Assembly: GCA_965368335.1 (NCBI GenBank)
Contig: CBDUMN010000002.1
Location: 26,135-90,134 of the forward strand
Direction: 5' to 3'
Source: an uncultured Rhodospirillales bacterium
GTDB lineage: Bacteria; Pseudomonadota; Alphaproteobacteria; Rhodospirillales; JAPHRK01
DNA: 64,000 nt
A model generated the notes under the pieces. It was not told the origin of the DNA. It was given only the letters and a program-made list of their open reading frames with translations, and did no database searches. A program made the position numbers and the translations under genes. Below, piece after piece: positions 14,372 through 28,371 of the stretch. The first letter of the stretch is position 1. Each line of letters opens with the position of its first letter.

Positions 14372-14422
14372 TGGTCGGAGCGAGAGGATTCGAACCTCCG
14401 ACCCCTTGACCCCCAGTCAAGT
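14372..14422 (-). repeat. Displaced 3' fragment of tRNA-Pro (island attachment-site repeat, integrase-proximal)
   Basis: tggtcggagcgagaggattcgaacctccgaccccttgacccccagtcaagt is identical to 28321..28371. The tRNA 5' half is absent here. Confidence 0.95.
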
Positions 14423-14500
14423 TTTTTGATTAAACATGGTTAAACAAGTCAAAAAGTCATACCCATAAAAACGGCTGTTTTATTGCGCTTTTTACAACAT

Positions 14501-14556
14501 GGTGTAACATGGGGTAACAGCAAGAAACGGGGTTTGTGTTACCCCGGCGTTACCCC
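14501..14556. promoter_or_regulatory. Cluster of GTTACCCC/GGGGTAAC octamers upstream of int (candidate arm-type recombinase sites)
   Basis: GGGGTAAC at 14511..14518. GTTACCCC at 14538..14545 and 14549..14556. A near-copy GGTGTAAC lies at 14501..14508. The same octamer pair recurs at the other island end. Confidence 0.5.
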
Positions 14557-14593
14557 GAATGACCTTTTGACCCTGCGGAAGGACCTTTTGACC

Positions 14594-15871
14594 ATGCCCA
14601 CAATTAAGCTGACCGCGCGCGCCCTCGACCACCTTCCAGTACCGGCGAAAGGACGCCTTGAGTTTTGGGACGCCGCCCTTCCCGGCTTCGGGCTCCGCAT
14701 CACCGACCGGGGCGTTAAGTCCTGGGTGGTGATGTATCGGATAAACGGAAAGTCGCGACGCCACACCCTAGGCCGCTATCCGAAAATGCTTCTTGGCGAT
14801 GCGCGGGAGGAAGCGCGAGAAGCGATGCGGGCCGTCGAAAAAGGTGATGATCCGGCGGCGGAAAAGAAAGCGGCCCGAAAGGCTGCGCCCGACAGCTTCG
14901 GCCAGGTGGTTGAAGACTATTTCAACCGCGACGCCAGCCGACGGAATAAAGCCTGGGTGGAAACCCGGCGTCTGATTTTACGAGATTGTGAGAAATGGAC
15001 TAATCGGGCGATCAGGGACATTTCGCGCCGAGAGGTTCGTGATCTTCTAGACGGCATCGTGGATCGTGGCTCCCCCGTCATGGCAAACCGGCTGTTTGCG
15101 TATATCCGTAAAGTTTTCAACTGGGCCGTTGATCGCGAAATCATCACAGAATCGCCCTGCCGTGGATTGAAAAAACCGAGCGAAGAGCGAAGCCGCGACA
15201 GGGTTTTGACGGACGGAGAGCTTGTAGAATTTTGGAACGCTGCCGACGCGCTGGGCTATCCCTTCGGCCCGCTTTACCGGCTCGCCCTGCTGACGGCGCA
15301 ACGGCGCGGCGAAGTCGCCGCCGCTCGATGGCAGGATATCGACTTGAAGCGCGGCGTTTGGACCCTCCCCCGCGAAAAGACTAAATCCGACCGCGCCAAC
15401 GAAGTGCCGCTTTCGGACTTGGCGATTGCCGAGTTGAAAAGCCTGCCCCGCTTCAAATCCTCCGCCCTGCTATTTCCTAGCCGCACAAAAACGCAACTCG
15501 CTAATAAAGACCTGAAACGAGACGCGGAGGACCACCCGATCTCTGGATGGAGTCGCAGCAAAAGACGCCTCGACGAACTCATCGCCAAGGAACGCACTAA
15601 GAACGATGTGGAACCGATGCCCGGATGGACGATCCATGACCTGCGCCGCACCGCCGCATCAGGAATGGCCCGCCTCCGCATCGCGCCCCATGTGGTCGAG
15701 CGCCTTTTAAACCACACAGAAGGCGAAATTTCAGGCGTCGCAGCCGTCTACAACAGGTATGGATACGAGGATGAAAAACGCCAAGCAACAGATGCTTGGG
15801 CACAATTCTTAATGTCATTATTGAATCAAAAAGATAATAGGAACGTGGTCAAAATCGAGGTTCGTGGTTGA
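14594..15871 (+). CDS. int: Tyrosine recombinase / phage integrase (P4-type with N-terminal arm-binding domain)
   Basis: The N-terminus (LTARALDHL...GFGLRITDRGVKSW) is DUF4102-like. C-terminal catalytic residues are HDLRRTAAS, LNH and VYNRYGY. The ATG at 14594 is preferred over the track start at 14483. Confidence 0.9.
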   Translation: MPTIKLTARALDHLPVPAKGRLEFWDAALPGFGLRITDRGVKSWVVMYRINGKSRRHTLGRYPKMLLGDAREEAREAMRAVEKGDDPAAEKKAARKAAPDSFGQVVEDYFNRDASRRNKAWVETRRLILRDCEKWTNRAIRDISRREVRDLLDGIVDRGSPVMANRLFAYIRKVFNWAVDREIITESPCRGLKKPSEERSRDRVLTDGELVEFWNAADALGYPFGPLYRLALLTAQRRGEVAAARWQDIDLKRGVWTLPREKTKSDRANEVPLSDLAIAELKSLPRFKSSALLFPSRTKTQLANKDLKRDAEDHPISGWSRSKRRLDELIAKERTKNDVEPMPGWTIHDLRRTAASGMARLRIAPHVVERLLNHTEGEISGVAAVYNRYGYEDEKRQATDAWAQFLMSLLNQKDNRNVVKIEVRG

Positions 15872-16464
15872 TGGCGAAGGAATATAAAACGCGCGGCACC
15901 GGGATAACGGAGCGCCAGTACCTTTCGTACAGTGGCGACGACGTGCCAGAAGGTCTCCGCAAGTTCTTCGACAAATGGGACAAGAGGATTGAGGACGGCG
16001 GCGGCTTCTTCGGCGGAGTTACGATAAGCATTGTTCAAGAAGCCGAGGCCGTCCTCGCCACGGCTGACGATGAAGAACCTTTGGAAGATAGTCCCGTCGA
16101 TTTTGCTCAGAAAATATTGAAATTATGGCGTTGGGTGAAGCATGACATTTCAGCGGACAATGCCGATCAAGCCGCACGGTGGGCTTTTGAACTTGGATAC
16201 ACCTACGCTACGGCGGTGATGAAACAGGATTGGGAAGAAGCCGCCTTGAAAGGGGCTGAAGTGCTTGAAGGCAAGGCGGAACTTGAAGCACGGCAGCGCG
16301 AAGAGCGCCAAGCGATACTTGAGGATTACGAGGCGCTCCGAAAAGAGGGGGTCCGAGCAAAAGTGGCCTATAATATTGTTGGGGAGAAATTCGGCAAAAA
16401 AACCGATGGTGCGGTAAAGCAGGCCGTTTACCGCGCCCGGAAAGAAAAGAAGGGGACACCTTAG
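15871..16464 (+). CDS. Island hypothetical protein (197 aa)
   Basis: The ATG overlaps the int stop by 1 nt (TGATG). Acidic, helical sequence with a lysine-rich tail. No family recognised. Confidence 0.55.
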   Translation: MAKEYKTRGTGITERQYLSYSGDDVPEGLRKFFDKWDKRIEDGGGFFGGVTISIVQEAEAVLATADDEEPLEDSPVDFAQKILKLWRWVKHDISADNADQAARWAFELGYTYATAVMKQDWEEAALKGAEVLEGKAELEARQREERQAILEDYEALRKEGVRAKVAYNIVGEKFGKKTDGAVKQAVYRARKEKKGTP

Positions 16465-16544
16465 AGATGTCCCCCTGCGAGCAGTAGGACAACGCCCCGC
16501 CCTGTGTTTTTCTCGAAAGTGAACACGCCGCACCGCGGCTAAAC

Positions 16545-16751
16545 ATGGAGGAAAACGCAATGACGCGCACATTTTTACGCTTCCCGGACCTCGTCGAAGC
16601 AGGTCTAGTGAACAACCGCACCACCTTGGCTCGGTGGATAAAGTCCGGCAACTTTCCCGCACCCGTCTCGCTCGGCCCGAATACCCGCGCATGGCTGGTT
16701 GATGATATCGAAGCATGGGCGAACACACGCTTCGGGGGCACGGAATCATGA
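16545..16751 (+). CDS. alpA: AlpA-family HTH regulator / excisionase
   Basis: 68 aa. LRFPDLVEAGLVNNRTTLARWIKSGNFPAPVSLGPNTRAWLVDDIEAW matches the AlpA/prophage CP4-57 regulatory pattern. Confidence 0.85.
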   Translation: MEENAMTRTFLRFPDLVEAGLVNNRTTLARWIKSGNFPAPVSLGPNTRAWLVDDIEAWANTRFGGTES

Positions 16752-27052: not shown

Positions 27053-27592
27053 TTAGGCCAACTTTACCGCTGTCCCATTCGCTACCAGCATAATCATCCC
27101 CCCATCCTTGTATCCGGGAAATTCTTGGTAATCTAAGTCGATTGCAATCACAGCGTCCGCTCCAACCATCAATGCTTCTCGACGAAGCTCTGTTAAAGCT
27201 GTGCGACGAGCGTCCCTAAGAACTTTCTGGGAAGCCCTACTTCTCCCGCCCACAACATCACGAACGGCTGCAAACATATCTCTAAACATATTCATGCCAA
27301 AGACGCACTCGGCGGAAATGATTTCAATCTCATGTTCAATTTCGCGCCCTGCAACCTGAAAAGAAGTTGTGAGGACAATTTCAGAAGCAACTCGGGAAAT
27401 AATTTCTGCTGGAGTATCTGACCAATCTCCAGACTCGCGGGACTTATCAATTAACGCCTGTTGGTGGGCCTCAATTCGTTCCCTACGGTCCGCATCAGTA
27501 GGTAGCGGAGCATTGCAATGCGGGCAGGCTGTCTGGTCCGAATACGTTTCTTTCTGACATGATGGGCAGGTAACTACAGTTGAAAGCATCAT
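27053..27592 (-). CDS. Zinc-ribbon domain fused to a YbjQ/UPF0145 domain
   Basis: The N-terminus carries CPSC...CPHC. The C-terminal YbjQ domain is paralogous to 26385..27029. The ATG at 27592 overlaps the SNase stop (ATGA). Confidence 0.75.
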
Positions 27593-28056
27593 TTTTCCCT
27601 TTTGGACTTTCGCCATTCCCATGGCGAAATAAACTCGCCGCTCCACATTCCACGATGATCGCTCATGGCGCGAGCCTCTTGATCGACGTAATCCCCTGAG
27701 TATTTCCTGTATGCTAGCGCCCAGCCAGCGGAGACCATTTCCGCATTGAGGTTCATTTGCCCTACAAAGCAGATGCCAATAAGCCGATTATAGCGATCCT
27801 TTACGCCACCCTCGCAGTGGACATTATTATTCCCAATGAGTTTGCCTAGGTACGCCTTGGCATCCTTTCCACACAGGAACTGCTCACTATGTTTGGTCAT
27901 GCACTTCTGCTTAATTTCGGGGGCATCAATGCCGTGAAGGCGAATGCGTTGTTGATTGATGATAATCGTGTCGCCGTCGGTCACTTTGGCAGTGCCAGTG
28001 AGTTCAGCTGCATGAGCAAAGGAGGTCATAAAGAGAAACATCAGAAAATATTTCAT
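27589..28056 (-). CDS. Thermonuclease (SNase-fold) family nuclease with a signal peptide
   Basis: 155 aa. MKYFLMFLFMTSFAHA-AE looks like a signal peptide. DGDTIIINQQRIRLHGIDAPE is the SNase core. Confidence 0.85.
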   Translation of the reverse strand: MKYFLMFLFMTSFAHAAELTGTAKVTDGDTIIINQQRIRLHGIDAPEIKQKCMTKHSEQFLCGKDAKAYLGKLIGNNNVHCEGGVKDRYNRLIGICFVGQMNLNAEMVSAGWALAYRKYSGDYVDQEARAMSDHRGMWSGEFISPWEWRKSKREK

Positions 28057-28235
28057 GGACGCAACATTACCATCATTGCGACATTATCGCTAGAGACACC
28101 ACCCTTGCTGGTCGCCAATAGATTATAAAGACGGCGCGCCAATCGAAATAGGTCCTTTCCCGATTCGCTACTGACAGGGCCGCAACACTGAGGGCAATGG
28201 GCCCCTGATGATTTCCCCTGTGATATTTGTCTGCC

Positions 28236-28255
28236 GTTACCCCAAATGTTACCCC
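28236..28255 (+). promoter_or_regulatory. Two direct GTTACCCC octamers at the tRNA-proximal island end
   Basis: GTTACCCC at 28236..28243 and 28248..28255, ending 65 bp from the attachment repeat. The same octamer occurs at 14511..14556. Confidence 0.5.
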
Positions 28256-28260
28256 AAAAC

Positions 28261-28287
28261 AAAAAAAGCACCCCGCGATGGAGTGCT
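28261..28287 (-). terminator. Rho-independent terminator downstream of tRNA-Pro, encoded by island DNA
   Basis: On the minus strand the sequence reads agcactcc-atcgc-ggggtgct followed by a 6-T run (then g, then tttt). The stem is 8 bp and includes one G-U pair. It lies about 34 nt after the tRNA 3' end. Confidence 0.65.
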
Positions 28288-28320
28288 ATTTTTGTAAGCT
28301 ATTGTTTTTTAAGTTTAAAT

Positions 28321-28371
28321 TGGTCGGAGCGAGAGGATTCGAACCTCCGACCCCTTGACCCCCAGTCAAGT
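28321..28371 (-). repeat. Attachment-site repeat within the intact tRNA-Pro
   Basis: Identical to 14372..14422. It spans the tRNA from the 5' side of the anticodon stem to the CCA end. Confidence 0.95.

Follow-up and report, generated by a model that had tools for sequence, protein, structure and literature searches.

Genetic content and borders of the island

We analyzed a 64-kb stretch of DNA from an uncultured Rhodospirillales bacterium (64,000 nucleotides of contig CBDUMN010000002.1; hereafter, the window), in which a genomic island carrying a tyrosine integrase gene (int) occupies a tRNA-Pro(GGG) gene. ARAGORN found this to be the single tRNA gene of the window, encoded on the minus strand. 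The 51 nt that make up its 3' part (28321-28371) recur at 14372-14422 with 51 of 51 positions identical, and the identity can be extended to 54 nt if one mismatch is accepted. On the tRNA strand the repeat corresponds to positions 26-76, that is, from one base ahead of the anticodon stem through the CCA end. The left copy is on the same strand as the tRNA and on its 3' side; it lacks the 5' strand of the acceptor stem and the D arm, and ARAGORN did not recognize it as a tRNA gene. A 23-nt segment of the repeat matched only these two sites of the window when up to three mismatches were allowed, whereas none would be expected according to shuffled sequences.

The DNA enclosed by the two copies encodes int, alpA, a primase-helicase, an IS3 element, umuDC and other cargo genes, as annotated with Pfam, PHROGs and NCBIfam (Table 1). 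Outside the repeats we found housekeeping genes of alphaproteobacterial type: on the left, a fused ispDF, which points to this class, cutA, and genes of the STAS and 2Fe-2S-like types; on the right, MerR, ihfA, fabH and plsX. The composition of the island is mosaic, with a GC content of 0.57-0.60 at 14.6-19.6 kb and 21.5-22.9 kb, which include the replication and recombination genes, and of 0.48 in the AT-richer blocks at 22.9-24.5 kb and 26.3-28.3 kb. The background of the window is 0.537 (standard deviation 0.02, 1.5-kb windows), and the overall value of the island (0.538) is the same as that of the remaining sequence. An earlier note, made by reading the sequence, had described a complete tRNA-Pro(GGG), the mismatch-free recurrence of its 3' 51 nt in a copy without the 5' half, the set of genes between the copies, the housekeeping genes outside them and, by eye, the mosaic composition; the tRNA prediction, the sequence comparison, the domain searches, the annotation of the flanks and the GC plot bore out all of these descriptions.

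The integrase contains the Arm-DNA-bind_3, Phage_int_M and Phage_integrase domains (PF13356, PF22022 and PF00589, all above the Pfam cutoffs), and its sequence is 100% identical to that of the database protein P0001. The catalytic residues R237, K264, H348, R351, H374 and Y386 (R-K-H-R-H-Y) are invariant in an alignment of 26 sequences. The domains and these residues place the protein among the arm-binding (P4-type, DUF4102) tyrosine integrases. The gene begins 175 nt from the displaced tRNA fragment and reads away from it, into the island.

Natural alleles with an unoccupied site

Metagenome contigs of the same population were retrieved by means of the exact IhfA protein, and a scan for the flank/core junction added one more (L089). 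Four contigs carry an empty site: L001, L002 (the same contig as L090), L003 and L089. In the first three, the 2Fe-2S-like gene is directly followed by an intact tRNA-Pro(GGG), and the order flank, core, tRNA 5' half is the one predicted for the attB site. The flanks of the empty-site contigs are 99.3-99.8% identical to those of the window on both sides, and the alignments break precisely at the 51/54-nt core. This defines the exact borders of a clean, site-specific, naturally polymorphic insertion of 13,949 bp, and the presence/absence polymorphism at such a high flank identity indicates that the insertion event was recent. The proposal of the earlier note that a site-specific island lies in tRNA-Pro(GGG) was thus confirmed by the comparison with unoccupied loci. 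The four contigs also run counter to the presence of the 14 kb in all relatives, which the note would have taken as part of a refutation. Its further claim, that the element is still excisable, stands in part: the empty alleles, the conservation of the catalytic residues and the presence of repeats in both arms of the attachment site (see below) make it plausible, but no excision junction was observed.

From these results, we consider it very likely that a 13,949-bp integrative genomic island was inserted in the anticodon-loop sublocation of tRNA-Pro(GGG) by an arm-binding (P4-type) tyrosine integrase. The features by which Islander recognizes a tDNA-integrated island are all present, namely an intact tRNA gene, a cognate 3' fragment in the same orientation, a tyrosine integrase gene inside, a size of 2-200 kb and an unoccupied site in relatives; the identity block at tRNA positions 26-76 corresponds to the anticodon-loop sublocation. 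Islander islands with an anticodon-centered attP likewise combine an intact tDNA, a co-oriented 3' fragment, a tyrosine integrase and an identity block that runs from the anticodon stem to the 3' end (PMC4383910). In that collection a 3' fragment accompanies 3760 of 3919 islands, and 2083 are of the anticodon type, the commonest class (PMC4383910). The island of the window does not differ in kind from this type; it is a new instance in an uncultured alphaproteobacterium.

Since the sequence comes from a metagenome-type assembly, we evaluated the possibility that the integrated form is an artefact in which a circular element and an empty chromosome were joined through the 51-bp core. Each half-junction also exists in attB or attP, and only sequences that span the whole core discriminate between these forms. 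However, the artefact would require two coordinated mis-joins, the word sizes commonly used in assembly are larger than 51 (related contigs are named k141), and the same layout is present in complete genomes and long contigs of relatives. This explanation appears extremely improbable.

It is also conceivable that the island integrated once by the same mechanism and is now fixed, immobile and decaying. The IS3 element inserted among its genes, the lack of transfer genes and the existence of one known copy agree with such a remnant. In contrast, the two 51-bp repeats match perfectly, the genes for the integrase, AlpA and the primase are full-length with the catalytic residues kept, the arm repeats are intact on both sides, and the presence/absence polymorphism at 99.3-99.8% flank identity speaks for a recent event. 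Taking both sets of observations together, we believe that a remnant is improbable.

The integrase gene adjoins the displaced tRNA fragment across its clade

The earlier note remarked that int adjoins the displaced fragment and not the intact tRNA, which the 175-nt distance corroborates, and it stated that int more usually lies beside the intact tRNA. We surveyed the layout of 80 loci with relatives of the integrase (40-49% identity) in species-representative genomes, nearly all of them from alphaproteobacteria. The 500 bp upstream of each int gene were scanned for a T arm followed by the acceptor 3' strand and CCA. A 3' fragment that is not an intact tRNA was found on the minus strand in 60 of the 80 loci and on the plus strand in none, against a background of 0.0025 per 500 bp per strand. 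None of the 80 loci had an intact tRNA directly upstream of int in the same orientation. The distance between the anticodon side of the fragment and the start of int has a median of 172 nt (range 136-346), close to the 175 nt of the window. The fragments of the relatives retain the anticodon loop and the 3' arm of the anticodon stem, which indicates that the anticodon-loop sublocation is used throughout the clade. In several short islands, the intact cognate tRNA could be located at the far end, on the minus strand: tRNA-Lys in L031 (10.4 kb) and L035 (6.0 kb), tRNA-Thr in L032 (10.1 kb) and tRNA-Pro(GGG) in L088 (10.6 kb). This last tRNA is the target of L097, L087 and L088, whose integrases are 82%, 61% and 54% identical to that of the window, respectively.

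These results show that a position of int beside the displaced fragment is the normal layout of this integrase clade and not an anomaly. An inversion or rearrangement behind the position of int was rejected because the layout is clade-wide. Regarding the usual arrangement, a published survey found that 15% of integrase genes adjoin an intact tRNA and that, among these, the tRNA preceding int in the same orientation is the commonest shape (PMC2951348). The statement of the earlier note holds for the int genes that are adjacent to an intact tRNA, but not for the relatives of this integrase, in 60 of 80 of which int adjoins the displaced fragment. Surveys that pair int with intact tRNAs only cannot see int genes that adjoin a fragment. 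Integrases that use the anticodon loop may share this arrangement in general, with a displaced fragment approximately 172 nt upstream of int and the intact tRNA at the opposite end of the island.

The same layout is present in CP4-6 of E. coli K-12, where thrW is intact at one end and intF is located at the far end, reading inward. The displaced piece of thrW is 107 bp from intF, and the repeat (70 nt, 96% identical) extends from near the anticodon stem to past the 3' end. IntF aligns with the integrase of the window from the arm-binding N-terminus onward (22% identity, E = 3e-12). In contrast to the island of the window, CP4-6 is 34 kb long, heavily decayed by insertion sequences and resides in a gammaproteobacterial host.

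Three related loci showed additional arrangements. In L082, which belongs to the same integrase clade, the piece beside int (9743-9780, plus strand) corresponds to the 5' 38 nt of tRNA-Arg(ACG), and the intact tRNA-Arg(ACG) is found 10.4 kb downstream, at 20110-20185. L082 represents the rare type with a 5' fragment. Here too, the anticodon stem-loop forms the end closest to int, as though the symmetric core had served in reverse orientation. In L076, a perfect direct repeat of 55 nt (4284-4338 and 8844-8898), which resembles a 3' fragment of tRNA-Pro, is separated by 4.6 kb, and no intact tRNA is present in the locus; possible explanations are a tandem array and an island with its tRNA outside the contig. 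In L088, approximately five tandem copies of a 16-nt unit (CGGCCGATATGTTTGG) are found at 11415-11494, between tRNA-Pro and tRNA-Leu and just outside the island.

Candidate arm-type sites and control of int

In the P' arm, four candidate arm-type sites with the sequence GG(G/T)GTAAC were identified, at 14501 and 14511 on the plus strand and at 14538 and 14549 on the minus strand; the one at 14501 is a variant, GGTGTAAC. The exact word GGGGTAAC occurs five times in the 64-kb window, always beside the cores: three copies are located in 14511-14556 and two in the P arm. Next to the sites of the P' arm, a tandem 21-nt repeat that contains GACCTTTTGACC (two copies) spans 14557-14597 and overlaps the ATG of int; it resembles the core segment GACCCCTTGACC.

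Upstream of int, L097 and L087 show the same elements in the same order: a fragment of tRNA-Pro(GGG), GGGGTAAC, two copies of GTTACCCC and two GAC(C/T)T(T/C)TTGAC repeats; the intervening sequence differs. In L088, whose integrase is more distant, GGGGTAAC is replaced in both arms by another repeated word, GGGGTACC, and in L092, which has an unrelated integrase, the word repeated in both arms is GCTTACCC. Because the GGGGTAAC repeats are conserved and co-vary with the integrase, they are probably arm-type sites for this protein.

The arrangement of these elements suggests how the island could have been inserted. In its circular form, attP would carry, in this order, two arm sites, approximately 65 bp, a 51-bp copy of the 3' part of the tRNA from the anticodon stem-loop to CCA, approximately 78 bp, four arm sites, the two operator-like repeats and the ATG of int. 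The crossover would take place in the anticodon stem-loop, so that the tRNA would be rebuilt with the copy provided by the island, which would also supply a terminator for it, and the 3' part of the chromosomal tRNA would be displaced to the far end, beside int. In attP, int would flank the tRNA-like segment on its anticodon side and be transcribed away from it, which would place it distal to the intact tRNA after integration. AlpA, which is 73% identical to its counterpart in L097, is the likely excision factor and a candidate recombination directionality factor.

The regulatory region of int is located inside a recombination arm, which makes autoregulation of the kind described for intS of KplE1 (CPS-53) likely. 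In that system the int promoter also lies inside an att arm, and Int and the directionality factor control it; where an int promoter overlaps an att region, autoregulation has been either reported or predicted (PMC2951348). By this analogy, int of the island would have its promoter inside the arm and is probably autoregulated. KplE1 differs from the island in that int follows the intact argW in the same orientation and the core is 16 nt long.

The sites of the P arm also bear on whether the region is a composite of two islands integrated at one tRNA gene, with the AT-richer segment at 23-28 kb as a relic of the earlier one. A sharp GC change near 22.9 kb and the fact that the backbone shared with L092 (see below) stops at 22928 would agree with this idea. 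However, the window contains no third copy of the core at up to three mismatches, so the island is not a tandem array, nor does it contain a second integrase; moreover, the sites of the P arm match those beside int, which argues that the right end is part of the same attP. We regard a composite as very improbable.

A rare backbone shared with L092

The proteins of the island were compared with those of the 80 related loci, and the ones in common were limited to int, along with alpA and primase fragments in a few cases each. In contrast, the segment from the primase gene to position 22928 is syntenic and homologous with L092, a 7.4-kb contig (Logan SRR22808070). The order of the backbone is conserved, and the identities are 69% for the primase-helicase (in the N-terminal third), 57% for orf147, 64-65% for orf188, 38% for the ClpP-like protein and 54% for orf72. 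Both elements have tRNA pieces at the two ends, int beside the fragment and arm repeats in both arms; they differ in that L092 has an integrase with 25% identity, an HTH_17 excisionase and another target tRNA, and lacks IS3 and cargo. These comparisons indicate that the island consists of a conserved backbone of 7-8 kb (the int module, the primase-helicase, orf147, orf188, the ClpP-like protease and orf72) plus 5.4 kb of variable cargo, and that IS3 was inserted later. The left 8.5 kb are a rare conserved backbone with one other known carrier. The tRNA-like pieces at the ends of L092 (1-40 and 7366-7395) differ in their T stems (CTCAC and CTTGT), so in that case, in contrast to the window with its perfect repeat, the 3' part of the tRNA differs between the copy of the element and the copy of the host.

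Only two members of orf188 were found among 5.8 billion proteins, those of the window and L092. The model of orf147 (pLDDT 68) had no fold match at E < 1. For the ClpP-like protein, the best family was the phage ClpP-related head maturation protease (NF045542, E = 6e-10, 39 bits, below the cutoff of 120), and against phage genomes it gave weak matches of 25-27% identity to Clp and head proteases alike. The inverted repeat just past the primase gene is a candidate replication origin.

The gene that begins over the int stop codon gave no family match in Pfam, PHROGs, NCBIfam or PADLOC. Five elements (window, 15871-16464; L097, 1502-2179; L087, 1577-2116; L088, 2145-2705; L092, 1508-1957) have a gene of 149-225 aa at this place, overlapping the stop codon of int, and the overlap suggests translational coupling. 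The five proteins have no detectable similarity to each other, although the adjoining int and alpA are conserved (82% and 73% in L097); this position looks like a hypervariable slot.

These data also led us to weigh a refinement that would add to the integrative island rather than replace it: the element could be a helper-dependent phage satellite akin to PICI, cfPICI or the marine VEIME. According to this scheme, a helper phage would trigger excision, the P4-type primase-helicase would replicate the circle, and the orf188 coiled coil and the ClpP-type, head-maturation-like protease would interfere with or exploit the assembly of the helper capsid. The int-alpA-primase core and the size of 7-14 kb fit satellites, in which int, an alpA-type regulator and a primase or replicase lie within an island of 7-18 kb. 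Marine satellites that lack capsid genes and carry int, AlpA and a primase-helicase have been described (PMC9618062). The backbone is conserved in the cargo-free 7.4-kb L092, the best family of the protease is that of the phage head maturation proteases, and orf188 is predicted to form a long helical hairpin similar to that of scaffold proteins.

The island also resembles the satellite phage P4 in its arm-binding tyrosine integrase, AlpA-type regulator, P4-family primase-helicase and integration into a tRNA gene. In P4, however, int is adjacent to the intact leuX, and a short core is located at the T-loop/3' end; besides, no equivalents of sid, psu, delta or cos were found in the window with Pfam and PHROGs. 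Also in favor of a satellite, the nearest integrase relatives with long context, L088 and L087, are small, capsid-forming, PICI-like islands that carry genes for heads and packaging only. L088 encodes TerL, HNH, a major capsid protein, an S78 protease, a portal and an adaptor within 10.6 kb, and L087 a major capsid protein and TerS. Both share with the window the integrase lineage, AlpA (54-57%), the target tRNA, the layout and the spacing; L087 also has identical arm-site motifs, and those of L088 co-vary. They differ in that they carry head/packaging genes and other replication genes, where the window has the P4-type primase-helicase and cargo.

Against a satellite, no capsid, portal, terminase, packaging-site or capsid-remodelling (sid/psu/cpm-type) gene was detected in the island with Pfam, PHROG or NCBIfam, the matches of the protease are below curated cutoffs, int and alpA are the only genes in common with L087 and L088, no helper is known, and orf147 lacks a structural match. 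We therefore consider a satellite nature as a tentative and rather unlikely refinement. It is likewise unlikely, in our opinion, that the two elements represent an undescribed and very rare satellite family, defined by the P4-type primase-helicase, orf147, the coiled-coil orf188, the ClpP-type head-maturation-like protease and orf72, in which whole integrase modules would have been swapped (25% identity between the integrases of the two members, and different tRNAs) and umuDC and other cargo would have been gained in the present island.

The IS3 element and the cargo

The IS3 element is intact: it has 32-bp inverted repeats, a 3-bp GAT duplication (20263-20265 and 21496-21498), an A6G slippery site for the orfA/orfB frameshift and an rve DDE domain, all of which assign it to the IS3 family. 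The syntenic place in L092 is devoid of it. In the cargo, a GTTC-N7-GTTC motif, which we take to be the alphaproteobacterial LexA box, is located at 24567-24581, 17 nt ahead of the probable ATG of umuD, with a second match at 24655. The window contains nine matches, so the motif by itself is not significant; nevertheless, umuDC of the island may be under the SOS control of the host. A search of the island cargo for defence systems with PADLOC gave noise-level matches only. In 26385-27646, two adjacent genes encode paralogous YbjQ-domain proteins with different N-terminal modules (PDZ and zinc ribbon), and the SNase gene follows. Among the scanned island open reading frames of at least 68 aa, we found no relaxase, coupling protein or type IV secretion gene; lacking transfer genes of its own, the island would depend on a helper for its movement.

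Table 1. Coordinates of the features of the island and of its target tRNA gene in the window (ORF, open reading frame)
Feature	Position	Strand	Basis
att core proximal to int, displaced 3' 51 nt of tRNA-Pro(GGG)	14372..14422	-	Identity to 28321-28371
P' arm of attP and int regulatory region	14423..14596	+	Repeats shared with L097 and L087
Tyrosine integrase gene int, 424 aa, Arm-DNA-bind_3 + Phage_int_M + Phage_integrase	14597..15871	+	Pfam
ORF beginning over the int stop codon, variable slot	15871..16464	+	ORF position, no family match
AlpA-family excisionase/regulator	16545..16751	+	PF05930 E 7e-5, above cutoff; PHROG excisionase E 1e-6
Small ORF whose end lies over the primase start	16715..17032	+	ORF; 68-134-aa genes at the same position in L087, L088, L092 and L097
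P4-family primase-helicase: prim-pol with NrS-1-type HBD, and D5/SF3 helicase	17029..19557	+	Pfam; PHROG 1829 E 1e-126; TIGR01613 above cutoff
Perfect 21-bp inverted repeat around a 77-bp AT-rich spacer, just past the primase gene	19570..19688		Inverted-repeat search
Backbone orf147, all-helical	19816..20259	+	Identity to the L092 counterpart
IS3-family insertion sequence, 1230 bp, intergenic	20266..21495	-	Inverted repeats, target duplication, Pfam
Backbone orf188, predicted long helical hairpin (coiled coil)	21543..22064	+	Structure model; identity to the L092 protein
ClpP-fold protease-like protein	22069..22719	+	Pfam CLP_protease E 1e-7; PHROG head maturation protease E 3e-7
Backbone orf72, last gene in common with L092	22710..22928	+	Identity to the L092 counterpart
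AT-richer cargo: zinc-ribbon membrane protein, 22914-23285 (-); 212-aa membrane protein, 23801-24439 (+)	22914..24439		ORFs, domains, GC
umuD (probable ATG at 24598) and umuC	24493..26270	+	Pfam S24 and IMS domains
AT-richer cargo co-oriented with the tRNA: PDZ-YbjQ, zinc-ribbon-YbjQ, SNase with signal-peptide-like N-terminus, 72-aa ORF	26385..28271	-	Pfam
P arm, two candidate arm-type sites (GGGGTAAC, two copies)	28236..28255	-	Motif scan of the window
Terminator-like hairpin and T run, 34 nt past the tRNA 3' end, supplied by the island	28267..28287	-	Sequence scan
Intact tRNA-Pro(GGG); its 3' 51 nt (28321-28371) are the att core proximal to the tRNA	28321..28397	-	ARAGORN and repeat comparison

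Discussion

The evidence supports the presence, in tRNA-Pro(GGG), of an integrative island that is probably still mobile. Several observations weigh against this reading or limit its reach. The island was found once; the closest integrase, 82% identical, is on a contig of 2.9 kb (L097), and the exact integrase protein is absent from the contig index. An exact-pattern scan of metagenome contigs for the junction between the attL/attP core and the P' arm gave no match, that is, neither an excised form nor a second integrated copy. The perfect repeat cannot tell which of its copies belonged to the element, and the arm sites and the role of AlpA were deduced only from position and conservation. No promoter-like site was detected upstream of int, in a scan that used the sigma-70 consensus and may not suit this host. 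Finally, the IS3 element is intergenic, but its location in the backbone could disturb expression between orf147 and orf188. Nevertheless, present-day excision is plausible, and a helper would provide the route of transfer.

The insertion is real but ordinary: it combines integration targeted to a tRNA gene, a umuDC cargo and the insertion of an IS element. Beyond this, the rare backbone family and the layout rule for the clade are of modest interest. For an integrase lineage of uncultured marine alphaproteobacteria, the locus provides a fully delimited set of attB, attL and attR sites, together with candidate arm sites and natural empty alleles, and this set is sufficient for the design of recombination assays. 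The layout corrects a working rule, since in this large clade int adjoins the displaced fragment, at approximately 170 nt, and not the intact tRNA. Methods that look for int beside tRNA genes will miss islands of this type, whereas the target tRNA can be named and the far border of the island located if the search begins at int and the fragment upstream of it is read.

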